Shown here: piece by piece, positions 792-60,371 of the stretch
Layout: each line of letters opens with the position of its first letter
Numbering within the stretch: the stretch's first letter is position 1
IMG/VR virus record: IMGVR_UViG_3300025087_000034
Reading direction: 5' to 3' (one strand)
DNA: 64,000 bases
Origin: a virus
Lineage: Duplodnaviria; Caudoviricetes
Position numbers and translations under genes: made by a program
Notes under the pieces: model-generated
Told to the model about the DNA's origin: nothing
The model's database searches: none
Seen by the model: only the letters and a program-made list of their open reading frames with translations

Positions 792-2090
792 GTGCCTAAT
801 TTTTCTGACATAACTATAAGGCAATACTCTCCGGGGTCCGTTGGTGGGTACGTGGCAGATAGAGATTTTAATTGGAGTAGCGAGGGAGACTGTAGGGATT
901 CCTTATTGGGGGTTTCCACAGAGATAGGGGTGCAATTTTATTACGCTTATCAACATCCCCGCCCAATGTTTGTTAGTTTGCCCTATTCTGTGTCTGAAGA
1001 CTGGTCTGATAGTCCGTCGAATGCCCCATTTTTATCTGATTTAGAAAGGTACTCGTATGGCAGGTTTGGGCCTAATAGGTATGGGAAGTTAGATAATTAT
1101 CGGGGGGCGAGTGTAAGACAAAATTACTTTGGTATGGCGTCAGAATCGTTAATTACTGAATTAATAACTAGTAAAGATACTGTAATATATGATATTGATA
1201 CGGGTTTAACGAATGAAACCTTAGTTTATGAAACCGAGGTTCCGTTTAATTACACAACCTTAAACCAACGTAACTTATTATTAAATGCTTCCCCAGCACC
1301 GTTTTCTTATAAGAATCCTGTTGATACGGATGTTTATATACGAATGGGTAATTATGTTTATACTCTTAGTTCAGGAACTATCACGCTTTCTTTGGACGGG
1401 GAAAGTAAAACAGGATTAGAAATAACCCCTTATTTTGGTGGGTTAGGCGGTTATGACGTTACTTGGAGTAATGACCAGGAGTTTGGGTATAATTCAAGAG
1501 TAGCGGTTCATTGGACGGTTTATGACTCTTACGTTCCACCAAATAAAATAGATTTCGATTATTGGTTTATGACCGTACAGGACTATTTAGGTCCTAGGTT
1601 TTTTTCTTTTTCTCCGCAGGATGGGGATATTGGTGTAGGTGTTGATACCTGCATTTCCTTTGTTGTTAGAGATTATGAATTAGGTATAAATATAAGTAGT
1701 CTTGAACTATATGTAAATAATGTTTTTATACCTATTAGTAGTATGAGTATAAGTGAAACAAGTTCTGGTGATGGTTATAGTATTTCTTTTTGCCCGCCGG
1801 AAGAATTTTTATATGGTGACACTATACCAGTATCAATATATGTAGAGGATAATTCAGAAGAAAAGAACTACTCTTTTTATGTGTATTCTTTTACTACAGA
1901 GGAAAGCTTGGCTCCTAATGTAATATCGCAGGATCCAAGGCCTTGTATTGGGTATGTTCCTGTTGACTATGATGTTGAGGTTGACGTAGTTGACGGAGGT
2001 GGCGGTATAGACGGTGAATCAATTGTACTAATAATAGATAGCAAGCCTGCTGTATTTAGAAAAGAGCCTATAATATATAGAGAGGATTAG
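792..2090 (+). CDS. Putative virion protein with Ig-like repeats
   Basis: 432 aa with GTG start. The C-terminal half has the pattern PQDGDIGVGVDTCISFVVRDYELGINISSLELYVNN...YSISFCP..EFLYGDTIPVSIYVED, which recurs in 7847..10360. Confidence 0.55.
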   Translation: MPNFSDITIRQYSPGSVGGYVADRDFNWSSEGDCRDSLLGVSTEIGVQFYYAYQHPRPMFVSLPYSVSEDWSDSPSNAPFLSDLERYSYGRFGPNRYGKLDNYRGASVRQNYFGMASESLITELITSKDTVIYDIDTGLTNETLVYETEVPFNYTTLNQRNLLLNASPAPFSYKNPVDTDVYIRMGNYVYTLSSGTITLSLDGESKTGLEITPYFGGLGGYDVTWSNDQEFGYNSRVAVHWTVYDSYVPPNKIDFDYWFMTVQDYLGPRFFSFSPQDGDIGVGVDTCISFVVRDYELGINISSLELYVNNVFIPISSMSISETSSGDGYSISFCPPEEFLYGDTIPVSIYVEDNSEEKNYSFYVYSFTTEESLAPNVISQDPRPCIGYVPVDYDVEVDVVDGGGGIDGESIVLIIDSKPAVFRKEPIIYRED

Positions 2091-2094
2091 TTGA

Positions 2095-5000
2095 ATGCCT
2101 AATACAGTACCTGGAAAACTTACTAAGCAAGGACCCATAGCAACACTAGAGGGTACAGTGGGTTTTACCGATGGTGACAAATTTATGTTTAACGGCAGCC
2201 AGTTTGTGCATTTTGTTTCTCAGGCTCCTACTGCTATAGAGGCTTCTGCTAATAAAGTACAAATACTTTATGATGGTCAGGTATATTCTAAGTTGTCATA
2301 TTCTAATTTTAAAAACAGCTCAAATGTTTTTAGGTTTTTAGATGGTGAGCCTATGTATACAGGAGTTTATATTGGTACTCCTGGTGCTTATGACCATGTT
2401 ATTATAGGGTATTCTTCTCCTATCACAACCAATCAAATTAGGTTTTGGTCTGCGAACTATATACCGAAGGATTTTATACGTGTAGATTATAGCCATGACG
2501 GGGATTATTTTTTTAATGTTCCAACAAGTGTGGGTGATGTTTCCTTTGAATTTGATGACTCTATAAGACTTTATTCTACAGAGGCTTCTCCTAGGGGCCA
2601 GTATGTTTATACTGTAGAGTTGAACGCAGATTACACAGCTAGTTATTGGCGTATTAGGTCTTTTATATTCGCTACCAATACAGCTAGGGTAGCAGACGTA
2701 AATGGTAAGACGGTTACACTGACCACGGTGTCAGGGCTCCCTGCTAGTTCTGATTTATATGAAGACGGTGGTTTATATTATTATGTTGGTAGTATAGGGA
2801 CTTCTTTGCAGACTAAAACTTTCCGGTCTTCTTCTTTACCGCCGATTAGTGGAGATGATAGGTTTATTACTTATAGTGCTACAAATATTACGTTGGATCC
2901 CAATTGTACTACTTTAACATTGAATAATGTTAGACTGGACAATTGTGTGGGAACTATTCGCAGAGGTTCTACCATTAAGGGCACGTGTTCTTTGATGTCT
3001 TTTCCTACTGAATATTACATAGCTGAATTAGCAGAGGATGTGGTTGTTTCTTCTAATCCAGATTATGTGGATCTTGTTTTTGATATCACCTATTCTTCTG
3101 TCCCTGGTTATGTTGTTGGGTGTCCAAATGTTCGCCTTAAATCTATAATAGGTAATTCTGGCAATATAGGATTTACGTTCTCTTACAGTGCTGAGTTGGG
3201 GTTGGTTTTATCTTATAAACCTATGTCTTCTGTCTTGTATGGTTCTTTAGGTGCTTCTTCTTTAGTGGGAATGAACATAGGGAGTTTTGGTGCTTCTGAT
3301 GATCTTGAAGCAGGAAGTTCCTTTGTTTATAGTTATGATTGTGAACTGACCCAGGTTCAGATAGTAAGTGGAGACAATAGCCAGCTTAGGTACTGGGAGT
3401 CTGATGGAAGTAAGTCAGTTACAAATTTATTGGAAGTAGATAATGTTTATGATCTTTCCTACGATGTTTCTGATGAGGTTTATTATGCTATAAGATTTAA
3501 TGCCTTAGGTGGGTTTGGTAGTCCTAGTTTGACCGATGATTTTTCTGGAAATTTTGGTAGCTCTTTTGATGCTTCTAAATGGGGGGAGCTTGGGACCGGT
3601 TTCTATAGGGACCCTGTAGCGGGGTGTGCCGTTTTTAATACTTCTTCTGGGGTTGTTAGTGCGGGGGGTCTTATAAGCACGGCTTATATAACGGGTAATT
3701 TTGATGCTTCTTTATATAACGAAGTAGCGACCTTGTCGGGTTCCGGTTTTTATGGTTTTTCGTTAATAGATAAAGATAGTAATAATATGTATGGCGGTGT
3801 ATTTTTAGCTAGTAATTGGGGGGCAGGGTTCAGTGGGTCTGTTGTCGGTGTGGGTGTTAGTGCGTTAGTAAACGTTGTTAGTTCCTATGTTAATTTTAGT
3901 AGTCTTAGCATTGATCCCTATGTGTTAGTAGAAGGAGACCATAAACATACTTTAGAGTATAGCTCTTCCTTGTGGTATTATACTAGGGAAAGCTTAACTC
4001 CGTCAGGTGTTTTATGGGATGTTTCTGATGTTAATGTTGGCTCTGGTCCAGGTGTGTTGTTGGACGGCATGAGCGTGTCCTTGGAAACGTCAGCTATGCC
4101 TCCGGATGGTAGCCACATTAGTTTTATTACGCATAAGAGCACGGCCTCTGGGTTGAGTAGTTCTACGGTTATGTTGTCTAGTAGCTATGACAGTCTATTG
4201 GGGCAGATTATTTTTAGTTTTGATGATGGGTTCGTAAGCTCTGTTCTGGTTTCAGAGATATACGGGAAGAATTTTAAAATAGGTATTTTTGGAAGTAATA
4301 GCAACTTTACTACTGTTAGTTCTACTCTATTTGAGTCTTCTGGGAGTGTTATATGGACCATACCTTGTTTTGAGGTTGTTGCTATTAATGCTGAGGGTAG
4401 TGTTACAGATGTTCCTGATGTTACTTCTGGGCGAGGTTTAGCAATATCTGCCTTGGATCTTGTGCAAGACCCTGTGGCCTCTTTTGGTGACTATTATAAT
4501 AAGGTGTCCATAGCAACAAACGGCTTAAGAAAAGACTCTGGTGGGGCATTGTTTCTAAGGATTAATTCAGATATTTATAGGTATGAGAAATCAGATCTCC
4601 CAATAATATTACCAGAGGAAGGGTCTACAGCTTCTGTTGTTGTCTCTGGTACTTTGCCATCTATCGAACTACGACATTTTAGTTATGACGACTATGTTAA
4701 TGGTGGTCTTAGTTATGGGTATGAGGATAGTCGTGGTGTTTTTATCACGACTGTTTCTTCCTCGTCTTTATTGGAAACTGGGTATGAGGCGGAGTTAGAT
4801 TTATTGGCCTGCTCTGTTCCTTTAGCTAGGGATCCTGTAGACTATTCTGTCTTATATACACTGGTAGGGAATAGTGTATATGTATTTAATTCAGATGATA
4901 CGTCTGTTGCTTTTTGTAATGTGATATCTAGTGAACCTGTGTTGCCGGCCAATTCAAACTATAGCTCGCTTATTACAGCGCAGGTTACAAACTTGTATGG

Positions 5001-5172: not shown

Positions 5173-5183
5173 GGGTGTAATAT

Positions 5184-7846: not shown

Positions 7847-10360
7847 ATGCGCTGGAAAGAGGGTGGAATAAACTATGCCTCTGGTAGTTTTAGTATTCCC
7901 GGGAGTAGCGTTCGGGTGTGTGCCTATGATAATGGCACACAGGTGTGTGATAAAGGACACAAAATAACAACACCAGGACAGTGTTATTCTCAAAGCATAG
8001 GAACTATAATAAGTACAGACCCTACGTTTCAGCCTACTTACCCTATATGTTTGGTAGATTATATGGGTCTTATTAATAGTTCGGGTTTTATATTTAATAG
8101 ACAGTATGGTATTTCTAGCACTTTTAATATAAGTACTTTAGATGTTGTTTTGTCTGCCTATAGCTTGGTGTTGTCTTCATTATATACAGAGAAAGAAGAG
8201 TATTTAGTTGTAAAAAGTATATATAAGTTGTTTGATTCTTTAGGTATTAGGGTTTGGTCAGATAGTATAACAGACAGTTATTCAGCCTATTTATCTGATT
8301 ATTATATGGTTGGTACTTTTAAGCTTTTATTGTTGAATAGTGGCTACATTCTCAGAGCTATAAATGCCTTTTCTGAGTTGTACCAGTATGATGTGTATGG
8401 TAGTGTTTCCTTACTTATGCCCTATTATTTTTTCCCTAAGATTACTAGGCAGGTAAATTTAGTAGTAATAGATGATATTACTGGTAGTTTTTCTGAGGTT
8501 GAGTCTTTATTTAAGTTGAGTGTAGAAAATTCTTCCGGCGGGGAAAATGAAAATCCTACAGATATATGTGTAGGAGACTTAACAAAACCATCTCTAGAAA
8601 ACATTCTACCTATACCAGGTTCTGTACTAAGACCAAATACTTCCTCTATATCATTTACTATAATAGATGCTATAGGGGGTGTTGATAGGTCTTCATTATA
8701 CATAACTATAAGTGGAAGTATAACAGCCCAAGCAGGTGGTAGTTCTATTATTGAGGCGGGTGTTATTCAAACTCCCCTGTATGCTTTTTTGGACGGGGAT
8801 GAGAATAGTTATGAATTTACCTATAACCCACCCTTTTTGTGGGCTGATAATGAAACAGTTTCTATAGCAGCTCATGGTTCTGATAAACTGCCTTTAGACG
8901 CAGAAGATGAAGAATTTATATGTGGTGGTCTTTCTACGAATAGCTTTGATGAGGCTTGGTCTTTTAATGTTGCTGGTATAAAGGAACTTACTTGTTCTAT
9001 AGTTGGGTTGGCGGATTCAGAACCTCCGTACATTGATTCTATATATCCTGTTCCTTTTTATGCTTATGCAAGATATGACGATGATATAACTTTTAACATA
9101 AAAGATGACCATGCCGGAGTTGATTTAAGTACTCTTTATGTCTATATAAATAATATTCCTGTTATTAGTGCTGGTGTGATTAATTCTGGTAATGTTTTTT
9201 TGGCCGGCGAAAAAAATTCATATCAATTTACATGGTCTAATACAGTAGGATTTATATATGGTGATAGAGTAGAAGTACATATAGTAGTTTCAGACTTATA
9301 TGCTGTTTTACCAAATATGTTAGACACAACTTATTATTTTGATGTAGTTGATGATTCTTCTCTGCAGTTCTTAAATTTTTTGCCGGCGGTAGGAATAACA
9401 CCTGACCTAGAAAATGTAAATATTGAAATAGATATTATAGATTCTCTTTACAATATTGATCAAAACAACTTATATATAAGTATGAACCAAGAAGTTGTAG
9501 ATAGTACCAAGACAAATATACAAGGTAATAGAAATTTAACTACTACATATTCTGGTTTAACAGCAATATCAGGTACTTGGATACATGATGCAGAAGTACT
9601 AGGCAGTATAATTACAAATACAACAGTTTCTGGTTCTTATATTATAGGAGGTAGTATAGAATATGGAAGTTCCATTTCTGGTTTTATGGGCTCTTTTCCT
9701 GCTCCTTTCGACTTAACTCCTTCCGGTATGATTATTTCCGCTGATTTATATGAAGGAATTGTAGTTTCGGGGACACTGGAAACTGTTCTTGTTAGTGGCA
9801 CTAACTGGGATGGCAAATATGAGAATTCAACTATTACTGATGTTAGTTTATCTGGGTTTTATTGTAGCAGCGTTTCTTCTTATAATACGATAATAAGTGG
9901 TACTATTGGCTACCATTTAGAGTATCACCCAGTAAATGACTTTGCTTATGATAGACCAATAGATATACTTATACATGCAGAAAATTTAAATTCCATTTCA
10001 CCGGTTGTTCGTGAAAGGATTTATAGGTTGTTTTATGGTTATAATGTAAAGACATTTAATACTAAGTTCAATAATAATGATAGAATAGTTGTTTATCTAG
10101 AAGCTTTAAATACATCAAATTTTTCGGCGGCGCTAAAAAATTCATATTACTTCAACACGAAAGAAAAAAGTATTTCTAATATATATGCTTCTATAAATAT
10201 AGTAGAACCATGGTTAAATATAACAGCCGATATACAACCACAAGCACCCGTACACAGGTACGGAGAAACAATAACTGTAGTACTATACGCACAAGACGTA
10301 CAAGGTAATGTATTGGGGCCGTATACCTTTTCATATACGATAGAAGATGCCCCAGAATAA
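7847..10360 (+). CDS. Putative virion protein with three Ig-like repeats
   Basis: 837 aa. Repeated units ISFTIIDAIGGVDRSSLYITI, ITFNIKDDHAGVDLSTLYVYIN and IEIDIIDSLYNIDQNNLYISMN. Confidence 0.55.
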   Translation: MRWKEGGINYASGSFSIPGSSVRVCAYDNGTQVCDKGHKITTPGQCYSQSIGTIISTDPTFQPTYPICLVDYMGLINSSGFIFNRQYGISSTFNISTLDVVLSAYSLVLSSLYTEKEEYLVVKSIYKLFDSLGIRVWSDSITDSYSAYLSDYYMVGTFKLLLLNSGYILRAINAFSELYQYDVYGSVSLLMPYYFFPKITRQVNLVVIDDITGSFSEVESLFKLSVENSSGGENENPTDICVGDLTKPSLENILPIPGSVLRPNTSSISFTIIDAIGGVDRSSLYITISGSITAQAGGSSIIEAGVIQTPLYAFLDGDENSYEFTYNPPFLWADNETVSIAAHGSDKLPLDAEDEEFICGGLSTNSFDEAWSFNVAGIKELTCSIVGLADSEPPYIDSIYPVPFYAYARYDDDITFNIKDDHAGVDLSTLYVYINNIPVISAGVINSGNVFLAGEKNSYQFTWSNTVGFIYGDRVEVHIVVSDLYAVLPNMLDTTYYFDVVDDSSLQFLNFLPAVGITPDLENVNIEIDIIDSLYNIDQNNLYISMNQEVVDSTKTNIQGNRNLTTTYSGLTAISGTWIHDAEVLGSIITNTTVSGSYIIGGSIEYGSSISGFMGSFPAPFDLTPSGMIISADLYEGIVVSGTLETVLVSGTNWDGKYENSTITDVSLSGFYCSSVSSYNTIISGTIGYHLEYHPVNDFAYDRPIDILIHAENLNSISPVVRERIYRLFYGYNVKTFNTKFNNNDRIVVYLEALNTSNFSAALKNSYYFNTKEKSISNIYASINIVEPWLNITADIQPQAPVHRYGETITVVLYAQDVQGNVLGPYTFSYTIEDAPE

Positions 10361-11950: not shown

Positions 11951-11958
11951 TATATTCT

Positions 11959-11988
11959 TTGACTTTATTAGTAATGGGGCATTAAAAT
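11959..11988 (+). promoter_or_regulatory. Candidate sigma70-type promoter for the endonuclease gene
   Basis: TTGACT-N18-TAAAAT in an AT-rich intergenic gap. Confidence 0.35.
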
Positions 11989-12094
11989 AATTATATTATG
12001 TTTCTTTTTTGATTTACAAATCATATGCTTCTTATTATATATAGGGTAAGAGTCGCTTGGGCTCATGACATTTATAGATAATAGGAGGCACAAG

Positions 12095-19765: not shown

Positions 19766-22700
19766 TGCGAGTACTTCCAAATATAGTTAATATACTTAAA
19801 AATGCGAGTATTAGAAACTGTGTGTCGTGTATGCACGATAACAAGAAAGGCTACTCTGTTGTTTGGAATACCAACAATGATTTAAATGGTTATTCATCTG
19901 TGGGGGGTGTCGTTTCACATACTGTTTGGGACGGTGTTTATTTTGGCGTTTCTGTTTCTGGTTCTTGTTATATAGAAAGCCCAGATACTCTTGATATAAA
20001 TGGTTCATACTATACACAGTTTAAAGCAGACTATAGGGTTGATTCTGGTAACAAAATAGTATCATCGTTATCTGGTAAGGTGCAGTTTAAGACTAATAGG
20101 GAACAGTATTGGTCAGAAGAAAAGTCTCTATATTTTGATGCTTATACAGATAATGCCTATCACGAGCATGTTGTTGATATGTCTATGCATGCTAAGTGGA
20201 ATGGCACTATAACCGCTTTAAGGTTCTACCCGTTTATCGATGGTGTAAGTGGTTTAAAATTTCATTTACGTGAGTTAGGGGTAGATTCTAGTAATAGGTA
20301 TTATTGTGATACAGGTAGTAGCGATGATGTTTGTGATAAGTATTTTGAGTACTCACACCCCTGTCCTTGGACAGGCAGTCCCGGGTACGCCTTAGCCAGT
20401 ACTGTAACGGGCACACTAACTATATACGAAGGTGTGAATGATACCTTATTGGTTGACATAGATGACTATGGATATCACTCTGTTAAAATAGGATCTGGGG
20501 TTAATAGGGAACTTAGTAGTATAGCTTGCGATATAGAGGAGAAGTTGAACTTAATTGGTGTTGGTGGGTACGCATATGCTAGGTGTTATGTAGATGAAAG
20601 CAGGTTAATAGTAGAGTCTGATTGGCGGAATAGTTCTTCTAGGGTAGTAATAGGTGTTCCAGAAGAGGGCTCTGCTTGTGTCGTCCTAGGTTTTTTTGGT
20701 GCCACAGGCGCTCCTTTATATACTAGTTTTTATGGTACAGATAAGGCTAGTGGGTACGAGGCTCCTTCTGTCCTAGTCTCTCCGTCCTCTTTGTCTTATT
20801 TAAAAAGCGCGGATAGGTCTAGTGCCGAAAGTTCTTTTAGTATTACTGGAAATGACTATTCTGTTTATGGGGGGAATAAGGATTATAAAAATTTTTCGCG
20901 CGACACAAAAATAATCTTTAGAAATCAAACTATAATAGACTACTGTAATCCTATAATAAGAACAGGAAAATTAAAGTTTTTAGGGTACAGTGGGGATAGG
21001 TATAACAATACAGAATTAAGAATATATAGAGAAAAAGTTGACGGTTCAATTTCTTTAGTAGGAAGTGTTTCTGTTCCTAGCTCTGCTGATGAGCTTGATA
21101 GGGTTTTTGAACTTGATATAGACCTTGACGTAAAGAAGGGTGACTTGGTTTCTTTATATAGTGCGGGTTTGCATTTAGGGGCAGAGACAGAAAAAGGGGA
21201 CTTTTCGTACTATCTTTATGATTATGACCTAGGAAGCCTTAACGAACACGTGGAGTATTTATCTGGAGCAGGGGAGGCGGGGCTACCCTTATATGTCAGG
21301 GGGTCTAGAGTAGCCTCTGAGGCTGTTATAGACATCATTTTTGATGAGGTTTTACCTGTGGAGTCTCTGGTTGTGTCTGCGGAGCACGAAGGCGTGTCTG
21401 AAGATATAAACCTGTGCACCTTGAGGGCAGGTGGTAACAATGGGGGGCCTTATTTAACTGGCTATACTGGTTTAGACATAGAGGGCAACCAGGCCCCCAC
21501 TTTAGTTAATATTGATTCTATAATAGACGGGGTTAAGCAGGACGTTAATACTGTTTCCACTTATTGTTACCCAGGCTGGCTAGATTTAGGACTTCCTGCC
21601 CAGGAAGATTATTATTATACTCCTTTTAGTGTGGCCATAGATTTCATTAAGGGTATAGATGTATTTTTTGATGTTTATAAGATAAAGCTTTATTTTGTAG
21701 ATAAGAAAAACATAAAGAGCTTTAGAATAGAGGTACCCTTTAGTTTTGATGCTAATGATGAAAACAAAATATGGGGGATAGGGTTTCCTACTTATAATGA
21801 AGTCTATACAGAGCTTGGGTTGATGGATAGTGAATATATCTATCTCTATAATAATCCAGCTATATTAGTTGCAAATGATTATCAGGTAGCTTACTCGCAT
21901 CTTGATTATAGGTATTTAGAGTTAGTTTTGGAGCCATATAAAACGAAGGCGATTCGCTATAATGCTTCTTTAGAGGGGTATTTTGTAGAGGACCCCCTAC
22001 AGTTAGACTACTCTGGTTTTCCTATAGCGCCAAGCCCAAAAATTCAAGAAATAGAAGTATATGCCAAGTCTATACCTGAGAATAGCATATCATCATATTT
22101 TAGTGTAGAGACCTCTAAAGATGGCACCATATATTTGGGGCATAATGACATAGACACAGTGTCTTCAACACGGGCTTCTTATACTGTGGGTAGGCCAACA
22201 AGATATTTAAGATTAAATATAAAGGCGAAAACACCCCTTAAGGTTTTTGATATTTATGGTATCTTAAGTGAGGGTCTTGTTGAACTTAATTCTAACAATT
22301 CACATTGTTTGAGTTTAAACCCGCCCCTAGATTTACCTGGGTCTTCTGTAGAAAAGGTAACTGTAACCAATGACAGTAGTAGTGTGTCCGATTTTTATGT
22401 AGATATATTGGAAGATAGGTCTTCAAGAGAGCTTTGTGTATTATGGAATAAGCTAGATTCAGATACTAGTGTCCAATATAGCGAGATTGGGCCGGGGGGT
22501 ATTGTTCATCGTAGACAGCCTTTTTATCTTAGAGCATATAACTATGCTTATAGGTGTCCAGGATATTTTTTGGATAAGTATTTTTTACGTGATACTAACT
22601 CTTATCTTAGCCAGGATGGAGGGCTTTCTTGGTCTAATATTGGTACTATTGTAACTGATGGCCAGAACTCTACTTATATAACAAATGAATACGAGTTGTA

Positions 22701-24795: not shown

Positions 24796-27700
24796 TGGTA
24801 AGCCAAACAGGTTATAACATAGTAAAGGAAGGAGACTTATATAATTCAGAGATTGCTACGTATTTTGTCTCTGTTTCTGGCTTAAGGTTTCTCTATGTTA
24901 ACCCATCAGAGGCGGTTTCGTTTGTAGTACCACAGGGCCGCGTATCCTCTTTAGACATAGTTTTTGGGGAATACTTTGATATAGACAATATAAAATGTTA
25001 CCTTTCTCCAATAAACTTGGGGGATATTAGTATAAGCTATGGCATCGAGTCTCCTTTAGAAAGCAGTGCTACAATATCTTCGTCCGGTACTTTTATTTAT
25101 GCAGATATAAAAAACGCCGTTGGTTTTTGTAGGATAACGTGCTCGGGTTCTGTTGACACCTCTGTTAGTAGCTTATTTGTTGAGGGTGTTCGTAACGAGT
25201 CTATGTATTTTGGTGTTCAGAATGCCCCTATCAGTATAACTAGTATAGGAAATTCCCCTATTGGGTATTATGGTTCTGCTTCTGAGATTTCTATATATAA
25301 TAAAGATAAGGCGTCCTCAAAGGCCCTGGTAGCCGTTGCTCCTACAGGGACCTATATAGATGAGTATTTGTATTTGGGGACTACCTCTTCTGGTCAGTTC
25401 TATGGTATAAACCAGCTGGGTATAACACAGCCTTCTTTTGATAAAATATTGACTACTCAGGATAGTTTCGTCTATTCCGACGAGTCAGGCCTTGTGAATT
25501 TGTGGGACATTGTTTCCACCTCCAGCTCGTATTTTACTGTAAATTCCGACAGCCTGTCTTTTGTGGCTTCTTTTATTAATGCCGATATACATGTGGCCAG
25601 GCCAGCTCATGGGTATAATGAGTCTAGTGTCTTAGGTTTAGTATGTAAGGATACTTTTACTACAGATCAAAGTTTTGTTGCCTCATTAAAGATAAAATTT
25701 ACTGATTCTTCTTTCGATTCTTATGATAAGTCTTGGGTTTATAAACCTAATAAATTTTTATTTGGTTTTACTAATAGCTTTCCTATTCAGGAGCCCTTGC
25801 TATCCTACTCGTCTTTAGACCAGGGGTCGTATTCTAGACAGGGAGGAAGTTTAGCCGCTGTTTGGGTTGGTGCTGACAATAAAGAGCAGGGTACCCTATA
25901 TGTTGGCGCGGCTGCTAATGATGGGGATTTTTCTAGTAATAATATACTTAGTTCTTTTGATGAAGTAAGAACTGTTCATAATGGTCACAGTATACTCTCT
26001 GCCTATAGTTTGGAAAGTATTTCTGAGTTTGTTCTTTATGAAGAAAATTATACAGACGGAACTTTGCAGGCTCCGTGGAGGACATTGAAGGTTTCGTATG
26101 ATCACCTTAGTGGCAAGGCAGTGTTCTTGTTCGACGGGGTTATTGTTGGGGAATATGTTTTTAGTTCCGGGTCTTTTTTTGAGGGTAGTAGGTTTTTCTT
26201 GTCTTTCGTGGGGTTTGGGGGTGCAGAAGTAGCGGTGAAGGATTTTTTTGTAAGCGTGGATGAGTACTTAACCTTGTATTCAAACCAGTCCTCTGCTACT
26301 GCCTATGGTTCTAAAGATAGCACACAACTACCGTACAAACTTGTGGATGGTTTTTATGACAATAGTAACTATAGCTCTGCTTGGGTTTCCTCTACGGTGC
26401 CCTCTCCTGCCAATTCTTTTTCTGTGTATTTTGGTGGTGTGTATAATGTAGAGGCTGTACGAATAAAGAGGGCCTCTGAAGGTAGCACCATTACTATTTC
26501 AGGCCTTTCTTCTTATACTCCTACGTCATCTGTAAAAACTTTGCAACTTAATTTTGACACAGGGGACCAGCGATACGTTTCTTTTAATAAGGAACCTTTT
26601 CTTATTGACGGGTGGGATATTGGTTATATGTATACAGTGTTCGGGGAAAGGTCTCCTGTTTTGGGGGCCTCATCTGTTACTGCTAATTTTTATCAGGTTA
26701 ATAGCCTAAGTGGTAATACTGGGTGTTTAGTTATAGACGAAGTAGAGTTTTTTACTGTTTCCGGTATTAGGTCGCTTCCATCTAGTAGTTATATAGATGA
26801 TAGTTATGGTTTTTTTTCCGGCCAAAAAAGAAATCTGTCTAAAACTTCTACCTCTCCAACTATGGTTATGGTAAGTAAAGATTTATACGATGTGTCTACT
26901 AATGAAATGTGCCATTTATTATTGGAGAATCGAGATTACGGGGGATCTTCTTTGGTATTTAACAATGACGACCCTTGGAAATATATAAATAGGACCTATG
27001 CAGAGTCTGTATTTAAGCGTGATGGAAGGGGCAGTGAGTGGGTGTTTTGTAGTGTAGAGGGCAATACAGCTTATATATGGAGACAGTTTGAGGAAGTTGT
27101 AGATTTAGGGGCCTTTTTTGTTAATTTTGTAAACTCTTCTAGTGATTATGGGTTGGGGTTTTCTGGAAGGCCCGATAGTTGGAAACTACAGTTTTTAAGA
27201 ATAGGAGGTGACCCGCTAACAGATAGTGACTGGATTAACATACCACCAGTTTCGACTTCGTATCACAGTGTCTCTGATTACAAAACCTATAGGGATAGGT
27301 TAGTTTCTAATAATGACGGAGAATACTATACTCTGTATTTGAACGCATTTGATGGTCTTGGCACAAGTGTGTCCCTTCCTTCGGATTTATTGTGTCGTCT
27401 TAATAGGGATAATAAGCAGACGTATTTATATAGTACAAGCGCAGAATTTTCTGCTTACGTCGAGTTTGATAGTGAGATAAGAACACAAGGTATTAGATTG
27501 TATATATCATATGGTTACACAACGACCAGCAGGGCAGTAGTTGCTTCGGGTTATTCTATGACAGGGTTTGTGGTTTATAGTAGCATGGCTGTTGGTTCGT
27601 ATACGTCCCCTATTTTTGATTTGGGTGGTAAACAAAATACGGAGAGGGTATTTGTTGATACTGTGCACAACGAAGGTAGCTCCTATATAATGTATAGGGC

Positions 27701-29927: not shown

Positions 29928-32139
29928 TCGGCTATATGATACCTCATACGTAGATGGCAGGGGTAACCAGGTGGTGTGGTCTAACGATACTAAGTTAGTG
30001 TCCTACTATAGCTGTGAGGGAGAGTCGTGGGATATTTATGGGGGTACCTCTTCAAGTTGGTACTTAGAAAATTATAGGCCTACCGATTTTTTCTATTCTA
30101 CAGATTTGGCAGATGATAAGTGGTCATATTTTTCTTATAGAGGTACTATTTCTGGGTCTGTTTCTAGTGGTTTGACTTTGGGTACTTATGGAAAAGAGGT
30201 TAGAGGAGGTGTGACTTCCTACGGAAAGTGGACTCTTTCAGGAATATTTGATATAAGACTTTACATTGATGAAAATTCTTATTATAATGAATATAGGAGT
30301 AATGTAGCTGTTGGTCTATCTGTTTCTAAGGATAGTTCTTATAAATATAGGGTGTCTAAGTATTTTGATGGGTCTTCTATAGGAGCTATGTCTCATTATG
30401 TAGAGGGTAAAGAACTAAAATATTACTCTTGGTTCAACAACGGTTCTTTTGTTTCTACTGAGGCTGATTCAAGTGTATCTTGTTTGAGGATCGTTCGTGA
30501 TGCCTCGGGGGTGTCCTCCTATGTAGATTACGGGGGCGGTTTCGTACAGGTCGGTAGCACGGTATCTGGGTTATGCTGGGAGAAGCCTTTGTATGTGGAG
30601 TTGGAGTTGGAGGCTGAGCAGGCTAATACAGTAGTGTGTAGGGTTGAGGGGGTGTCTATAAGCGGGTCCGTTATCCCCTCAACTATGTTTTCCTCAAAAA
30701 TACGTGGGGTTACACAGTCTTTTCCTGGTGAGACTATTTTTGTTGTTGATTCTTTGGGCTTATCTGTGGTGGACTTGTCAGACTCCTCCCTTTGGATGAG
30801 GTTTGATTTGGATAGCGGCGCTATGTTTAGAGACGTTGATTGTAAAATTTCGGCGGGGGAAGGAAAAATTTATTATACTTCCACACAAGGACTTAATTGC
30901 ATAGATTTTTCAAATGATACTTTTTATAGGTATATAAAAGGAAAGAAACAAACTAGTAGTTATTGTATAGTAGAAAGAAATTTTGATACAATTTTGTACG
31001 ATTCTATTAGTATGGATTTGCTTCCAGACAATCAGGTTAACGACGTATTTTTTAGGAAGTTTAATGGTACAGACTATTTAGCGGTCACTACTGTTAGTGG
31101 TTTGGATATACTAGTAGATGATTTTTCAGTATATAGTAGTTTAAATAGAAATGAAAATATATCAAATGTTTTTATTTCCCCCGCTGGGAAATTATTGTGG
31201 TCTTCTTATAGCCAGGACTCCAATACAGGAAAACTCTATGCTTTAGATGACATATCTGCTATACTTACTGGTGGTGGGGTGTTCAATTATTCAGTTTTTT
31301 ATGATTCTGATACTACCCCTATTTCCCTATCTTCTGAGAAAATAAATTCTATATTCTGTTCTATTGAGGGGGAGATAGTTTTAGCAAATGAGTTTGGAAT
31401 AGATTATATAAATAATAGTGGGTCAGTTTCTTTTGGCCCAATTAACTCTATTAATCCCTTAAGCAGCCCTTCTTTTGAATCGTTTTTAGGGGTTGATTGG
31501 CACTTGCTTTACTCTTCTGTTTTACCAAAGCCCCTGGTTTCCGTTTCTAGGTCTTCTTCTTGGAAAACTAATGGTAGTTATAGCTTAAAGCTTTCTTCTA
31601 TTAGTGGCGGTTACTATGTTTCTAATTATAGTGGTGGTGTTTATCAACAGGTAGATTTTTCATTAATAGATAAATTATATTTCGATATTAAGGTTGTGAA
31701 TACTACTGGTATTACCTCTAATATAGGGGTGTTTGAGGTTCTTTGTGGTGGGTCTGTTTTATTGTCTGTTAATAGTATAGAAGGCTCCTTTATAAAGTAT
31801 AATTATTCGATAGATTGTTCTTCTATTAATTCTGTAGGTCAGCTGGTATTTAGACTTAGATATCTTACTTCTATTGCAGGTGTTGGGGAACTTTCTTATT
31901 ATGTTGATAACGTAAGGGTATTTATAAAGGAACCAGACTATAATATAATACCAACTAGAACACATGAGGTTTTATCTGCAACTTTATTTGAAGCTTTAGG
32001 CCAGAAAAAGATATATTTTTCTTGTAAAGATGGTTACGGAGCAATAGATGTAGATACAAATACGCTAGACTACTACACATATATTAATGATTTTGTACAG
32101 GGTGGTATTATAAATAAAGCTGAGTATGCTATAGGATAA
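29920..32139 (+). CDS. Putative virion protein (739 aa) with a beta-propeller-like module shared with 33280..39453
   Basis: FPGETIFVVDSLGLSVVDLSDSSLWMRF matches FPTQVYVVVDTEGLSVINAADNTLWMRF in the downstream giant ORF. Confidence 0.55.
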   Translation: MTNRLYDTSYVDGRGNQVVWSNDTKLVSYYSCEGESWDIYGGTSSSWYLENYRPTDFFYSTDLADDKWSYFSYRGTISGSVSSGLTLGTYGKEVRGGVTSYGKWTLSGIFDIRLYIDENSYYNEYRSNVAVGLSVSKDSSYKYRVSKYFDGSSIGAMSHYVEGKELKYYSWFNNGSFVSTEADSSVSCLRIVRDASGVSSYVDYGGGFVQVGSTVSGLCWEKPLYVELELEAEQANTVVCRVEGVSISGSVIPSTMFSSKIRGVTQSFPGETIFVVDSLGLSVVDLSDSSLWMRFDLDSGAMFRDVDCKISAGEGKIYYTSTQGLNCIDFSNDTFYRYIKGKKQTSSYCIVERNFDTILYDSISMDLLPDNQVNDVFFRKFNGTDYLAVTTVSGLDILVDDFSVYSSLNRNENISNVFISPAGKLLWSSYSQDSNTGKLYALDDISAILTGGGVFNYSVFYDSDTTPISLSSEKINSIFCSIEGEIVLANEFGIDYINNSGSVSFGPINSINPLSSPSFESFLGVDWHLLYSSVLPKPLVSVSRSSSWKTNGSYSLKLSSISGGYYVSNYSGGVYQQVDFSLIDKLYFDIKVVNTTGITSNIGVFEVLCGGSVLLSVNSIEGSFIKYNYSIDCSSINSVGQLVFRLRYLTSIAGVGELSYYVDNVRVFIKEPDYNIIPTRTHEVLSATLFEALGQKKIYFSCKDGYGAIDVDTNTLDYYTYINDFVQGGIINKAEYAIG

Positions 32140-32141: not shown

Positions 32142-33272
32142 ATGTCTTATACACTTACAGGAAACATAACAGGGATTTTAGGTATTACTAATATTGTTTC
32201 TAGTGATTTAACTTATATGTCCGATGGCGATAAGTATGTTAACGGGCCCACGATTTCTGTAGGAGAGACAGCGGAATTTATTATAGATTTGTATAATAGG
32301 TATTATACGTTGGGGGTGTATTATTATTATAGTGGTGGGGGTGTGGTTTCTATGTATGTTGAGGAGTCTTTTGGTTATTGGGTACAAGTTTTTCCGTCTG
32401 TTATTCTTGGTGGTTTATTTATTGGTCTTACGGGTGTTTATCCTAAAAGAGTAAAGGTTGTGCACTTGGCTTCTTTGAGTCTTGTTACTGCACATGAGTT
32501 ACAAATATATAATAAAGATACTCTACTGGTTTTTGATTTTGATAAGGTAGCTTTAGATTCAAGTGGTGTTTTAGATACTATGGTTTCTGTATATAATAGT
32601 AGCACTGGTGTTAAAGATATAAATGTATTTGTTTCTGAGGGGAGCGGGGTAGAAAGTGTAGCCCTTTCTTATTCTGGGTCCGGCCCCTATTATTTTAGAT
32701 ATGAAAAGGGTTTAATACTACCCGGGGCTTTTTCTTGGGATAGTGGGAGACATATTAATACTGTGGTTAGTGGCACAAACCTTACTATTTCAGGGGTCTC
32801 TGTTAGTGGTACCTACTATAGCCCTGTTGTTGATTTGTATGGCTATAGTGGATACAGGGTTTTTTGGGATGAATTTTTACCAGACGGTGATTTTATAGGT
32901 TTTATAGATAACAGTGGAAGCGAGAGGTGTATTGGGGTTAGGTCTTCATATATTGCTCCAGTAGAGGGTTGGTCTAGTGGGTCGTTGGCTTCTGAGTCAG
33001 ACCCGTTTTGGAGCATTGCGGATGGGTCTCTAAATTTTTTGGCGGCGCCGAAAGAGATCATAATAGCAGATGATATAAATAGGTATTCCCAATTTTGTAT
33101 AACAATTACAGGATCAATAACGAACAAACCATATATAAAAAAGGCAGGTTTTGAAACACCCATAACGATATCTGGTGTTCAACCAAGCACTTATGCAAAT
33201 ATATATATTCGTAATAATGAAGATACCTCTGGAAAAACAGCTGGTATCATAACATGGTATACAGAACAATAG
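32142..33272 (+). CDS. Putative virion protein (376 aa)
   Basis: Beta-rich composition. The SGTYYSPVVDL motif resembles VGSYTSPIFDL in 24795..29927. Confidence 0.5.
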   Translation: MSYTLTGNITGILGITNIVSSDLTYMSDGDKYVNGPTISVGETAEFIIDLYNRYYTLGVYYYYSGGGVVSMYVEESFGYWVQVFPSVILGGLFIGLTGVYPKRVKVVHLASLSLVTAHELQIYNKDTLLVFDFDKVALDSSGVLDTMVSVYNSSTGVKDINVFVSEGSGVESVALSYSGSGPYYFRYEKGLILPGAFSWDSGRHINTVVSGTNLTISGVSVSGTYYSPVVDLYGYSGYRVFWDEFLPDGDFIGFIDNSGSERCIGVRSSYIAPVEGWSSGSLASESDPFWSIADGSLNFLAAPKEIIIADDINRYSQFCITITGSITNKPYIKKAGFETPITISGVQPSTYANIYIRNNEDTSGKTAGIITWYTEQ

Positions 33273-43949: not shown

Positions 43950-43955
43950 TTTTTC

Positions 43956-43984: not shown

Positions 43985-44013
43985 TAATACGTGATGGTAA
44001 AAAGGAGATTTTA

Positions 44014-45155: not shown

Positions 45156-45731
45156 ATGTCTAAACAGTCAACAATTTTTTCGGGCGCCGAAAAAAATATT
45201 ACTGAACAAGATTGTATTGACATATTAAAAGAAAAAAACTATATAATAATAAAGCTAGACGATTTAGACACAACACAGGTTAAAACAGCTAAGGAGCTAG
45301 TTTCTTTTTTCTATGCTACTTTATCTTTTTATAATAGGTCAAGATTATTACATTATGGGAAGACAACAAAAAAAGATTTAAAGTTAGCTTCATCTTTTAT
45401 AAAGATAAGACAAGAAGAAGCCGGTCTTAGTAAGGGTAGGGCTGTACAAGAATGTGCCATGATAGTAAGGTGTGTAATAGCAAATGAACCAAAGTTTTCT
45501 CTTTCTGAGCCGTTACATAATATGGAATGTTTTGGACAGGAAAATATGCGGTGGGTTACTGATAAAGCAATAAGCATAATAAACGGGGAGAATAAGAAGA
45601 TAGAAGAGGAAAAATATAATAAGTATATAGAAGATCTTTATGGTGCGCAAGAAAAAATAGCCATTGAAAATATAGATAATAAACATGTAGAAAATCTTAA
45701 GGATATTTTAGGAGATTTAGAAAATGGGTAG
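45156..45731 (+). CDS. Hypothetical protein
   Basis: 191 aa helical ORF, coupled to recA. Confidence 0.6.
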   Translation: MSKQSTIFSGAEKNITEQDCIDILKEKNYIIIKLDDLDTTQVKTAKELVSFFYATLSFYNRSRLLHYGKTTKKDLKLASSFIKIRQEEAGLSKGRAVQECAMIVRCVIANEPKFSLSEPLHNMECFGQENMRWVTDKAISIINGENKKIEEEKYNKYIEDLYGAQEKIAIENIDNKHVENLKDILGDLENG

Positions 45732-47577: not shown

Positions 47578-48988
47578 TATTTCAGTAAATGTGCCTTCAG
47601 CCGATTGGTATTCAAAGCCAGCGGCTGAGAGAGCTTTGCTATCTTTATGCTTACAAAATTATTCAACTTTTATTGATGTTTCCTCAAAACTTTTTCATGA
47701 GGATTTTCTGGACCCAGGAAACCGTGCTTTATTTATAACTATGTTATCTGTGCATTCTTTGGGTACAGAAGAGTTCGATTTGCCTACTGTTATTTCTTTT
47801 GCTGAGAATATGGGCGTTTTAGAAGATATAGGGGGCTATAAATATATAGACGCTCTTTTTAGGTCAGAGATTAGTCAGTCAAATTTAGAGGTGTATGTAA
47901 AACAAGTTCTAGATGCCTCTTTGTTATTTAAGCTGGAGAGGGTCTTAAGATTGAATGTTGAGTCTGTAAAAACTAGTGTTTCTGAAAATAAGACGGCTTC
48001 TGAGGTTATGTCGTCTGTGGAAAACCAGATTTTGAATCTTTCTTTGGATACATTAAAGGTTGATGATGGACAAGATTTGGTAGCTGGTCTGGAGGAAAGG
48101 TTAAAAGAATTTGAATCAAACCCAGCCGCTGTTAGAGGTATAAGGTGTGGTTTCGAAGTACTGGACCGCACTATAAACGGGTTTAAGCCAGGGACTTTAT
48201 CAATTTTGGCCGCGCGGCCAAAAACAGGAAAAAGTACATTGTTATTAAATTGGGGTATACATATTTGTTTACATGAAAAACTTCCTGTATTATATTTAGA
48301 TACAGAAATGAGTAAAGAAGAACAACAGACAAGAGCTTTATCAATCATATCAGGTGTTCCTGAACGTGTAATACTTAATGGGCTTTACATTAATGACGAG
48401 AATGTTATGAAGTCTGTATACTATGGTGTAGAAATAATGAATAAAATGAAATTTATCCATAAATACACACCAGGGTATAGAATAGAAGAACTTAAGGGCT
48501 TAATACGGAAGTATAAAGCTAAAAATAATATAGGTGTATTTATATATGATTACATCAAAATGACAGATATGGAAGATAAGTTTAACGAAACCCAAACTCT
48601 TGGATATATAACAAGTGGTTTGAAGGACACGGCGGGTATATTGGGTATAGCTGGAATATCTGCGGTGCAATTAAACCGTGGGGCTGAGGGGAAATCATTG
48701 GTTGGTTCCGGGGACATTGCCGATTCGGATAAAATTTTGAGATATTGTTCTACATTGATGGCTATGAGTAGAAAAACAAGGGCAGAAATAGATAAAGAGG
48801 GGGGTAGAAGTGGGACACATCGTTTACAAATTCTTGACAGCAGAGGCAGCAGAAGCTTATATAGTGGTATAGACTTGGAAGTTAATTTTCCCACATTGAC
48901 AATAAAAGAAGCCAGAGCACAGTCTTCAGCTGCATTTTTGGAACAAAAACAACTTGAGGAAGAAGTTACAAAATTAGGAGGAAGATAG
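47558..48988 (+). CDS. dnaB: Replicative DNA helicase, DnaB family
   Basis: N-terminal AERALLS, Walker A LAARPKTGKS, YLDTEM, YDYI, SAVQLNR, IADSD. Confidence 0.95.
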   Translation: MRKLEDSISVNVPSADWYSKPAAERALLSLCLQNYSTFIDVSSKLFHEDFLDPGNRALFITMLSVHSLGTEEFDLPTVISFAENMGVLEDIGGYKYIDALFRSEISQSNLEVYVKQVLDASLLFKLERVLRLNVESVKTSVSENKTASEVMSSVENQILNLSLDTLKVDDGQDLVAGLEERLKEFESNPAAVRGIRCGFEVLDRTINGFKPGTLSILAARPKTGKSTLLLNWGIHICLHEKLPVLYLDTEMSKEEQQTRALSIISGVPERVILNGLYINDENVMKSVYYGVEIMNKMKFIHKYTPGYRIEELKGLIRKYKAKNNIGVFIYDYIKMTDMEDKFNETQTLGYITSGLKDTAGILGIAGISAVQLNRGAEGKSLVGSGDIADSDKILRYCSTLMAMSRKTRAEIDKEGGRSGTHRLQILDSRGSRSLYSGIDLEVNFPTLTIKEARAQSSAAFLEQKQLEEEVTKLGGR

Positions 48989-49399: not shown

Positions 49400-49411
49400 T
49401 CTCTTATTTTC

Positions 49412-49425
49412 GCGGCGAAAGCCGC
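49412..49425 (+). other. GC hairpin with GAAA tetraloop just upstream of the primase RBS
   Basis: GCGGC-GAAA-GCCGC, preceded by TTTTC and not followed by a U-tract. Confidence 0.55.
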
Positions 49426-52159: not shown

Positions 52160-52992
52160 CTTTTTATGATGTGTTAGGCGCGTCTAAAGAGGCCTCAGAA
52201 GATGAGATAAAAAAAGCCTATAGAAAGAAAGCTAAGGAAACCCATCCAGATATAAATAAGGATGACCCAGAAGCTGAAGAGAAGTTTAAGAAGGTTTCTG
52301 AGGCTTATGGGGTTTTAGGAGACTCTGAAAAACGACAACAGTATGATTTTTCATTAGAAAACCCTGGTTTTAATGGGGGACCTGGATTTAATTCCTGGAC
52401 TAGTACTAATTTTGATGATATTTTTGGTGCACATTTTGGATTTGGTGCTAGTGGTCCCAGACAAAGACCAAAACCAAATCCTAAGGTAGTAGCTCGTGGG
52501 AAGGATGTAAGAATTAAGTATGACACTACTCTTTACTCAGCAATATTTGGTGGAGAGTTTTCTGGTAGGTTAAAATTTGACTCTGGATGTCCAAATTGTG
52601 CGGGGTATGGCTATCTTAAGTATGATACCCCGTGCAGTACTTGTGGGGGCTCAGGCCAGCAGTTTATATCCCATGGTATGCTTCGTATGAGTCAGCCTTG
52701 CTCTTCTTGTAGAGGCCTTGGGTTGGCTCCTAGTGAACAGTGTCCTGAGTGTTCTGGTTCTGGTAAGTGTAGTAATGAGTTTGAATACTTTGTTACTATT
52801 CCAAGAGGGTTTGTATATTCCAATAATGAAAATGGTGGTGTTATTATAGTAGAAGGTAAGGGGGCACCAGGAATTAACGGCGGGGAAAAAGGAAATTTAA
52901 TAATAATAACAAATATTTTAACCCCAAAAATAAATTTAGAACAGATAACAGAAGAAGAAAAGGAAATACTCAAAAAGTATATAGATAATTAA
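52156..52992 (+). CDS. dnaJ: DnaJ (Hsp40) co-chaperone with shortened C-terminal domain
   Basis: J-domain with HPD, G/F-rich linker and four CxxCxGxG motifs. Confidence 0.93.
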
Positions 52993-54665: not shown

Positions 54666-54860
54666 ATGGTTGAAAAGAAAGAAAAAAAATATCAAATATA
54701 TAAAGAAGGTGTGTTTGTCGGACTTCAACTTCTAGATGGGACAAAGGTTTTTGGTATAATTGATACTTTTGACAATTACTTCTTATATATAGACGATGGA
54801 ATAACTATCATTGATGTACCACGGGACATAGTGAGAAGAATTTTTGCGGTTGTAAAGTAA
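54666..54860 (+). CDS. Hfq/Sm-like small protein
   Basis: VGLQLLDGTKVFGIIDTFDNYFLYI matches the Sm1 pattern (cf. Hfq [25 protein letters not shown]). An Sm2-like IDVPRDIVRRI follows. Confidence 0.65.
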   Translation: MVEKKEKKYQIYKEGVFVGLQLLDGTKVFGIIDTFDNYFLYIDDGITIIDVPRDIVRRIFAVVK

Positions 54861-56946: not shown

Positions 56947-56948
56947 TT

Positions 56949-58070: not shown

Positions 58071-58086
58071 CTTTTTGGGGGTTTTT

Positions 58087-58920: not shown

Positions 58921-59729
58921 TTTTGTATATTAGTGTTCCAATAATTCTACGTAACATCGTAAGGCTTAATTACCCTGTGGAAATGGTAGTTGGTAGTGTT
59001 GCGGGCTTGGCTAATGAGGTTGTTTTGTGCGTCGACCCTTCCTCGGAGGACTCGACTGTTAAGTTGTGTGAGGAGATGTCTTTAAGGTCGAAGCTCGGTG
59101 GAATAAAGACAGATATACGTGTAGTATATAGTAAATGGGATTTAAAAAACATAACTGATACAGGATATGAATTTGCTAAACAAACAAATATAGCAATAGA
59201 TTACTGTATTGGGGACTGGGTGCTTCTTTTACAGGCCGATGAAGCAATTCACGAACAAGATTTTGATAAGATACTTGACGCAATTGATTATGCAAACGAT
59301 AATAATATAGATGGGTATGAAATGACACGTCTGTATTTTTATGGTAGTATGGATGTCATACGAGACGATTGGACAGTTCCTATTATAAGATTATTTAAGA
59401 AGGGGTCTAGAAAATCGTGTGGGGACGCTATGAATACCTTAGGTAAGGGAAGGGTTGAAAGACTTAATGTTCCAATATATCATTATTCACGTATAGGGGA
59501 TCCTGAAATTATATCTAAACGTATATTATCTTTGGATAAATTTTTTCACCGCGCGGAAAAATTAAAGGACGAAAAAGAACTTAAACCATACTCATTTGAC
59601 ACATATAACTTTGATTGTCAACATAAAGACAATATAGACATAGGAAGAAAAAAAGTAGAACAATCATTTAGTACATTTACAGGCACACACCCAAAAATAT
59701 TCGTTGGGTATACTGGGGAGGGTTTTTAG
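58917..59729 (+). CDS. Glycosyltransferase, GT2 family
   Basis: NEVVLCVD..SEDST...AKQTNIAIDYCIGDWVLLLQADEAIHE...IYHY. Confidence 0.85.
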   Translation: MILYISVPIILRNIVRLNYPVEMVVGSVAGLANEVVLCVDPSSEDSTVKLCEEMSLRSKLGGIKTDIRVVYSKWDLKNITDTGYEFAKQTNIAIDYCIGDWVLLLQADEAIHEQDFDKILDAIDYANDNNIDGYEMTRLYFYGSMDVIRDDWTVPIIRLFKKGSRKSCGDAMNTLGKGRVERLNVPIYHYSRIGDPEIISKRILSLDKFFHRAEKLKDEKELKPYSFDTYNFDCQHKDNIDIGRKKVEQSFSTFTGTHPKIFVGYTGEGF

Positions 59730-59732
59730 TTC

Positions 59733-60371
59733 ATGATATTAGAAATGTCTTCCTGGGCCAAACTAAATATAAAAGAACCTGCCCCTTTATATGAAGTTCC
59801 AGGAATTAATTCTATAGAACCTATTGATGTATATAATTTTCGTTATTCTCGTCCGTATACTGAATTAAGTAAACCAGAACTAGAGGACCCACACAGGCAG
59901 TATTTGGATGTTTTGTGTAATTTGGACAGGGGAAGCTCTCTTTTAATTTTTGGCTCTGGTCACAGTTTTAATATGAACATCTTTTATGATTATGGGAGGT
60001 TTTCTAGGCTTGTAGCTGTAGATTTTTCCGCGGCGGCAAAAATAGGTCTTTACAAAGAAATAGAATTTTACGATAATAATATACTAGAAGGTGACTTACC
60101 TGTTGTTTGTGACTATGTTTTTTCAGCTCATACTATAGAGCATTTTTATAAGAAAGAATTATTTGATATTGTTTTACCTAGATTGTTTAAGGCTGCTAGA
60201 AGGGGTGTAGTGATATTAGTACCGTACGGTACTAATTGGGCCGGGGAACCTTACCATAAGTGTCAGTTTTATGAAAATGATGAATTTGCATCGTTGTTTG
60301 ATAAATACAGGATTGTAAGAAAGGGTTCAGAAATTATATTTTTTAAAGGGGAAACTGACCATGGATTTTAG
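59733..60371 (+). CDS. Class I SAM-dependent methyltransferase-like protein
   Basis: LLIFGSGHS, LVAVDFS, DYVFSAHTIEH, VILVP. Confidence 0.7.
   Translation: MILEMSSWAKLNIKEPAPLYEVPGINSIEPIDVYNFRYSRPYTELSKPELEDPHRQYLDVLCNLDRGSSLLIFGSGHSFNMNIFYDYGRFSRLVAVDFSAAAKIGLYKEIEFYDNNILEGDLPVVCDYVFSAHTIEHFYKKELFDIVLPRLFKAARRGVVILVPYGTNWAGEPYHKCQFYENDEFASLFDKYRIVRKGSEIIFFKGETDHGF

Follow-up and report, generated by a model that had tools for sequence, protein, structure and literature searches.

Why should an AT-rich phage genome hold, within and between its genes, short segments composed of G and C only, each preceded by a run of T and followed by a run of A? The question is raised by a 64,000-nt stretch of viral DNA (IMG/VR record IMGVR_UViG_3300025087_000034; hereafter the window), in which an earlier reading made from the letters alone (the sequence-only reading) had described such a T-S-A element, S standing for G or C, as written into coding sequence. 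The element is enriched and specific to its phage lineage, and it is flanked by a polar composition gradient that depends on the complete motif. Tentatively, and as an explanation somewhat more apt to fail than to hold, the element is taken to be a site that a lineage-specific protein recognises through DNA shape or stability and at which strand cutting or fork stalling occurs.

The source is an uncultured huge phage of 258 kb from groundwater; an identical DnaB is encoded on a groundwater scaffold of 258,514 bp, in which the window corresponds to bases 83,379-147,378, and many samples contain near-identical copies. The window has a G+C content of 38% and a strongly positive GC skew. Its genes, all on the plus strand and tightly packed, encode giant virion-type proteins and a replication module (sliding clamp, RecA, DnaB, DnaG, SSB, DnaJ, RuvC, and a PD-(D/E)XK nuclease). 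The sequence was extended beyond the window by walking along public contigs, and about 131 kb were inspected in all.

Enrichment and anatomy of the T-S-A element

The ten full examples of the sequence-only reading were all found at their coordinates and with their sequences; its half-sites are present as well, although they are weaker than the full sites. Its description of the background was also borne out, with a CpG observed/expected ratio of 0.62 and with TCT, GCT, CCT, and AGG as the usual codons. The pattern TTTTSSSSSSN{0,6}AAA gives 32 overlapping matches, compared with 1.0 in dinucleotide shuffles. The enrichment over synonymous-codon shuffles that this reading had led one to expect is likewise seen: the strict motif (T4+S6-12A3+) occurs 7 times in the window against 1.14 +/- 0.38 expected, and none of 500 shuffles, all of which keep every protein and the codon usage of each gene, reaches 7. 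In the same test the reverse order A..S..T has no match in the window, and neither T-side nor A-side half-sites alone are enriched once the full sites are removed. Both tracts are required, solely in the T..A order. A relaxed score finds 10-11 sites where 0.7-1.7 are expected, and in the 106-kb block of plus-strand genes there are 10 strict sites (2.3 expected) and 16 loose ones (2.9 expected). Twenty-six sites were curated in this block and were used for the tests of anatomy and placement; they lie within and between genes at a density of about one per 3-4 kb.

The consensus of the element is AAA-T5 / core / A5-7-TT. Measured with its occasional CAC or TAC interruptions and the like included, the core is 9-10 bp long in 16 of the 26 sites and 6-13 bp long overall; it is G/C-only, no position is conserved, and all cores are different. 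GGCGG/CCGCC occurs in 14 of 26 cores, as compared with about 35% expected, by a hand tally and an estimate from the core list. As a class the element is two-fold symmetric, with the T run 5' and the A run 3' on both strands. As the sequence-only reading had pointed out, this is the opposite order to that of an intrinsic (Rho-independent) terminator, which also has a GC-rich segment between A and T runs; T-S-A differs from it in that the T run comes first, the core is mostly incapable of forming a stem, and sites lie inside genes, and a terminator was rejected on these grounds. Phased A-tracts or DNA curvature were rejected as well, with no 10-11-bp periodicity.

With neither its sequence nor its length fixed, the core is unlike a word of the parS or Chi type. 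The cores share no word and the T and A tracts are needed, which is not Chi-like; core length varies and nothing beyond G/C is conserved, which is not a ParB-family site in the sense of a fixed-length palindrome with conserved bases. Of the genome-wide cis-element suggested by the sequence-only reading, the idea of an element read by a phage factor is still the best class of explanation, but the parS or Chi logic offered with it did not stand. Since the core is indifferent to G or C while T before and A after are strictly needed, it appears that shape or duplex stability, rather than base identity, would be read out.

The sequence-only reading had also considered a bend or cruciform signal. 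The cores are not self-complementary as a rule, and their outer bases pair at the chance rate. Most z-scores of short folds at 30 nt are above -2 (10 of 14 folded motif regions have z > -1.9), and 120-nt folds around the sites give no structure signal. Four good folds were found, at 33041, 45181, and 48208, and at 49411 in a hairpin that is not a member of the class. Apart from these three or four sites the folds are ordinary, and the hairpin or cruciform did not survive.

Constraint on DNA rather than protein

The strict motif can be spelled by synonymous choice at only 12 places in 20,815 codons, and six of the 12 are realised. In relatives the realised places are 0/18 and 5/192, that is, 5/210 compared with 6/12 here (Fisher p = 2e-6). 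The site T7-GGCCGGCG-A7 (9195..9216) is one at which the protein permits the motif and the motif is realised. In DnaB, the Walker A peptide ILAARPK is encoded by T4-GGCCGCGCGGCC-A5 (48204..48224), a perfect 20-bp palindrome that is unique among 40 homologues; the coding here is ATT TTG GCC GCG CGG CCA AAA, whereas in 39 homologues this peptide is spelled with mixed codons. Similarly, the site T6-CGGGCGCCG-A7 (45175..45196) lies 25 nt into the gene of a 191-aa protein, where TCG and GAA within IFSGAEK complete the motif; the TCT and GAG of a relative do not.

The coding sites have a common reading phase and a similar peptide, F-[SL]-[AG]-[AG]-x-K, which together with the few good folds would favour a hairpin, a cruciform, or a signal at the level of translation (frameshifting, a rare-codon stall, or this peptide as a protease or peptide motif). 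However, the T-run ends at codon position 1 or 2 in 10 of the 12 permitting places, and all six realised sites are among these ten. The common phase therefore arises because coding constraints permit the motif mainly there. Amino-acid shuffles yield 9 +/- 3 permitting places against 12 real ones, so that the proteins are not visibly reshaped, and a protein-level motif was rejected because the shuffles yield as many such places. A frameshift or translation signal was rejected because two or three sites are intergenic and the phase distribution equals that of the permitted places. Overall, explanations of this kind are largely refuted, and it would be surprising if one of them were correct.

Codon shuffles, the comparison of realised with potential places, and the codon alignments of orthologues agree in placing the constraint on the DNA and not on the protein, as the sequence-only reading had held. 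This supports selection, or some other process operating at the level of the DNA.

A polar composition gradient around the sites

Two features, both beyond the sequence-only reading, are key to the interpretation: the absence of sites from minus-strand genes, described below, and a polar composition gradient around the complete sites. Directly downstream, A at third codon positions rises from 0.24 to 0.46 and returns to its baseline of 0.26 by about 420-540 nt, and third-position G is halved. In the last 60-120 nt upstream, third-position T reaches 0.53 and C falls to 0.07. When all positions are compared with random places, the z-scores are +8.8 for A and -7.0 for G downstream, and +4.1 for T and -4.6 for C upstream. 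Within two-fold codon families, AAA, GAA, and CAA increase from about 0.5 to about 0.75 downstream, while TAT increases from 0.82 to 0.98 and AAT from 0.75 to 0.91 upstream. The gradient is strongest at third codon positions, although all codon positions are affected, and it shows no 10-bp phasing. An example is the A-rich, G-poor tail after the DnaB site (48225..48640, plus strand), where third-position A over 50 codons is 0.50, compared with 0.22-0.40 in five orthologues.

No such gradient is seen where the motif is incomplete, whether at 45 CpG-rich G/C cores that lack tracts, at 41 T..A brackets that lack a G/C interior, or at 71 lone A-tracts, and therefore the complete motif is needed. 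The DnaB orthologues do not have the A-rich stretch, so that it is not a property of this region of the protein, and the sporadic T-S-A sites of relatives are not accompanied by a gradient either. From both observations, a lineage-specific factor appears to be needed. Ascertainment was rejected as the source of the flank asymmetry, since the flanks of permitting places left unrealised in relatives are not asymmetric.

The two sides mirror each other, C having been replaced by T in whichever strand runs 5'->3' toward the core. Such a change is a well-known signature of cytosine deamination in DNA that is single-stranded. Even if the element had no function, this gradient would be a natural record of polar single-strand exposure at a defined site.

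The element could also be a functionless by-product, in which a mutational or repair quirk, or selfish conversion, places G/C between runs of T and A and leaves A-rich DNA alongside. The gradient is indeed mutation-like in being diffuse, decaying, and present at all codon positions, turnover between relatives is fast, and the genome is rich in homing-type nucleases. However, partly-G/C brackets are not enriched and G/C at third positions in non-motif T..A brackets is ordinary, which makes the class discrete and not graded; a graded mutational bias within all T..A brackets was looked for and not seen. Two opposite biases would be needed, because the core goes toward G/C and the flanks away from it, and the motif is missing from the minus-strand block of the same genome. 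A by-product is accordingly considered unlikely.

Lineage specificity

Related loci amounting to about 750 kb hold 7 strict sites in all, compared with 7 in the 64-kb window, and five distant large relatives, 1.28 Mb in total, hold one. The sole site common to a syntenic relative is T6-CA-CCGCGCGG-A5 (59541..59561) in the glycosyltransferase gene, which corresponds to L002:20716. To judge from these comparisons, the motif is specific to this phage lineage. At orthologous positions in relatives, for example at the DnaB Walker A, there is no recoding to G/C. The sequence-only reading had counted loss of the CpG codons at orthologous positions as evidence against its proposal, and the codons are indeed lost there; since the compared relatives are only about 55% identical in DnaB, however, this loss shows lineage specificity and not a lack of function.

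A mobile mini-element of the RPE or GC-cluster type was rejected, as the alignments of DnaB, the glycosyltransferase, and the 191-aa protein are gap-free and all cores differ. Little strain variation is seen: other assemblies of the phage are 99.9-100% identical, and their few differences are grouped at one recombination junction.

Distribution in the genome

Among the 26 sites, two or three are intergenic and there is no tie to gene boundaries. For five of the 26, the next gene starts no more than 150 nt away, compared with 13% expected (p = 0.24), which gives no indication of promoter-like placement; a hint of a link to promoters or gene boundaries at 16 sites was lost at 26, and promoters of the sigma-70 type exist elsewhere. 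One of these, TTGTCA-17-TATAAT, stands at 43950-44013 of the window, ahead of the sliding-clamp gene, and a second promoter-like site at 11951-12064. Host-type promoters thus exist within the plus-strand block.

In 24.4 kb of minus-strand genes there are no sites, where 3.7-6 are expected (P = 0.025-0.0025). These site-free genes include those for a mini RNA polymerase and a sigma factor, as well as an amidoligase cluster. The block spans about 106,000-130,400 in window coordinates (extended genome; loci L092, L093, and L174) and encodes a 1039-aa single-chain RNA polymerase, a sigma-70 region-2 protein, a RuvB-like ATPase, and pentapeptide-repeat proteins in addition to the amidoligase cluster. 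Its GC skew is weakly negative and plus-strand T still exceeds A, so that part of the skew is independent of gene direction.

This distribution bears on a transcription-elongation element, that is, a hairpin-free pause at which the polymerase would be trapped in an energy well by the G/C core between weak U:A and A:T pairs. Its role would be in the long plus-strand operons, possibly the ones that the phage mini RNA polymerase transcribes. The motif is limited to the co-oriented plus-strand block and missing from the RNA polymerase/sigma block, the core mode of 9-10 bp matches the RNA:DNA hybrid of RNA polymerase, G/C content alone matters, and both weak tracts are required, all of which would be consistent with a pause. 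However, the larger downstream footprint falls on the template strand (G to A on the plus strand), which is opposite to what queued sense polymerases would leave, and relatives that presumably have the same polymerase do not have the motif. A pause element is thus an improbable explanation.

A proposed mechanism and its alternatives

No account of such an element was found in the literature searched, and several known systems can be compared with it. Sites of the ParB family (KorB OB, Noc NBS, and parS) have a similar T-rich/GC/A-rich palindrome logic and many dispersed copies. The operator of RK2 KorB, OB, is TTTAGCSGCTAAA, and the NBS of Noc is ATTTCCCGGGAAAT. These sites have a fixed length, conserved bases, and a cognate protein of the ParB type, none of which was found for T-S-A, the look for such a protein covering about 131 kb, or half of the genome. 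Stoperators of cluster A mycobacteriophages and the TTTGCCGGCAAA dyads of another phage are also similar, being tens of short lineage-specific sites along co-oriented genes under DNA-level selection; they differ in that they are defined words of 13-14 bp with an orientation rule, and no flanking gradient is reported for them.

By analogy with these systems, T-S-A may be an architectural or regulatory binding site without strand breakage, bound by a protein similar to ParB, KorB, Noc, or a stoperator repressor, whose flanks are selected for groove shape or for spreading. Copies dispersed at one per 3-4 kb in and outside genes, the two-fold symmetry of the class, its lineage specificity, and the likeness to OB and NBS would all be expected of such a site. 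The absence of conserved core bases and the length of 6-13 bp are unlike the operators of helix-turn-helix (HTH) proteins, however, and a diffuse gradient of about 400 nt, which is strongest at third positions and unphased, would be hard to maintain through selection for binding. In addition, no ParB or HTH candidate is among the Pfam and PHROG hits of the 131 kb. A binding site without breakage is rather unlikely on this evidence.

The proposed reading, a site at which strands are cut or forks stalled, can be potentially described as follows. T-S-A would be a duplex-DNA element of about five T, then a core of G and C alone that spans roughly one helical turn, and then 5-7 A, and it would read the same on either strand. 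A factor present in this lineage and missing from relatives would recognise it by shape or stability and not by base identity, and the strand running 5'->3' into the core would repeatedly be single-stranded on both sides of the site. Exposed C would then deaminate, giving C to T upstream on the plus strand and G to A downstream, fading over about 400 nt. This may come about in two ways. In the first, the strands would be nicked, or cut in a staggered fashion, at the T|S junctions and then resected 5'->3', while the G/C core serves as a clamp; in the second, a tightly bound protein would arrest helicases or forks. The geometry fits 3' tails left by 5'->3' resection at a break or nick in the core, and it fits equally the lagging-strand template behind a stopped helicase. 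If nicks were made at both T|S junctions, the two strands would stay paired through the core of about 10 bp, which may be why only its G/C content and length matter. Candidates for end processing are encoded in the genome, namely RecA, RuvC, the PD-(D/E)XK nuclease, a Rad52-like annealing protein, and many other nucleases.

A core of this size and composition recalls the lambda cosN type of cos site, which is partly symmetric, is cut by staggered nicks, and leaves a GC-rich overhang of about 10-12 nt. A cos site, however, occurs once per genome with a fixed sequence, whereas T-S-A recurs every 3-4 kb with differing cores, so that its ends would not be mutually cohesive.

The localised nicks of T5-, phiKMV-, and tf-like phages can also be compared, their sites being short, scattered through genes, and of similar density (14 in 46 kb in tf). 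The T5 nick site R/GCGCRGG is a GC-rich island in an AT-rich genome, and the nick-site consensuses TACT/RTGMC and CGACxxxxxCCTA/CTCCGG are fixed, asymmetric, and confined to one strand (PMC3517423). In contrast to such fixed, asymmetric words on one strand, the T-S-A core is unfixed and its class two-fold symmetric. Twelve of the 14 tf nicks are found in the gene block that has the nicked strand as its coding strand, which parallels the limitation of T-S-A to the plus-gene block. This parallel is suggestive, but it would not support the footprint, since the mapped tf nick sites carry no composition gradient, whereas T-S-A sites, at which nicking is only proposed, do carry one.

One could go further and regard the sites as programmed interruptions of the plus (non-template) strand, or as staggered nick pairs held by the G/C core, which act as entry points for phage machinery. 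Such interruptions may provide primer-template junctions that load the sliding clamp, so that late transcription would be switched on without replication, in the manner of a hard-wired T4 'nick as enhancer' mechanism; or they may be start points of recombination-dependent replication. Either use would account for the confinement of sites to the plus-strand block and their absence from the RNA polymerase/sigma block. Programmed interruptions are nevertheless a doubtful proposition, and quite improbable as stated.

Several points weigh against cutting or fork arrest as the proposed reading. No reader protein was recognised among the Pfam and PHROG hits of the inspected sequence, and breaks, nicks, and arrest at the sites are deduced from sequence. 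The downstream effect is stronger and longer than the upstream one, and some T and C is lost downstream as well, for which simple deamination would not account. The A-rich flanks may themselves have been selected as part of the functional site. A purely symmetric DNA model does not predict the absence from the minus-strand block, and the tf nick sites without a footprint indicate that packaged nicks alone need not cause one.

If a cut or stalled-fork site is nevertheless the correct explanation, T-S-A would be a new kind of genome-wide cis-element, which is set by composition and geometry instead of a word and is written into essential genes by synonymous recoding, with a readable mutational footprint. 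It would also allow recurrent strand breakage or fork arrest to be detected in uncultured phages from sequence only, and would point to a DNA-reading protein of shape or stability specificity in huge phages.

Individual sites

The remaining sites of the window are spread over its length. T5-GCCCGCCGG-AAGAA (1787..1805) is within the gene of a 432-aa protein. Four sites belong to an 837-aa repeat protein (7847-10360), which, besides the site at 9195..9216, carries a weaker site, TTCTT-CCGGCGGGG-AAAA (8530..8547), a T-side half-site without an A-tract, T6-GCCGGCGG (9376..9389), 180 bp past the full site, and T5-CGGCGGCGC-T-A6 (10120..10140). Two of the four are within an internal repeat (VFLAGEKNSYQF and NFSAALKNSYYF) and, because of this location, may be non-independent copies. 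T5-CGCGCG-ACAC-A5 (20892..20911) is found in a 1676-aa gene and T8-CCGGCC-A6 (26810..26829) in a 1710-aa Kelch-repeat gene; these are followed by TTT-CGGCGGGGG-AAGGAAAAA (30848..30868) and T6-GGCGGCGCCG-A3 (33035..33053). An A-side site, TTAA-CGGCGGGG-AAAAA (52874..52890), lies in the DnaJ-like gene, and T5-CCGCGGCGGC-A5 is at 60023..60042.

Three pairs of sites are 161-180 bp apart, at 9202/9382, 80769/80933, and 99335/99496 (window coordinates, the last two in the extended genome). Two of these pairs straddle a gene start, with the leading member shortly before it and the trailing one about 120-140 nt into the gene. This pairing is a post-hoc observation and may be due to chance.

The good fold at 49411 is that of the intergenic hairpin GCGGC-GAAA-GCCGC (49407..49424, plus strand), which matches the pattern by chance and was not accepted as a member of the class. 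Its tetraloop structure has a folding energy of -10.7 kcal/mol (z = -3.5) and stands 14 nt ahead of the ribosome-binding site of the primase gene; a T run precedes it, none follows, and relatives carry a different sequence there.

Homing-type and related genes

Two GIY-YIG endonuclease genes, at 51323-52159 and 54860-55606, are missing from the syntenic relatives L001 and L002. Strain L004 diverges inside the second, with 16 differences at 55117-55185, and its downstream glycosylation cluster is swapped for other genes. This arrangement resembles a recombination junction formed at the gene of a homing endonuclease. A 388-aa protein (12065-13231) has a repeat array followed by a C-terminal T7 endonuclease I-like domain, and is one of the homing nucleases with a zinc-finger array in this genome. 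A gene of the TnpB type (OrfB_IS605 / Cas12f-like TNB) is found at 61053-62186. The 286 nt after it (62187-62472) are free of genes, contain a G10 run at 62403-62414, and could be the place of a guide RNA of the TnpB type. Farther downstream in the genome, two RRXRR+HNH proteins of about 470 aa are encoded, which are possibly IscB-like.

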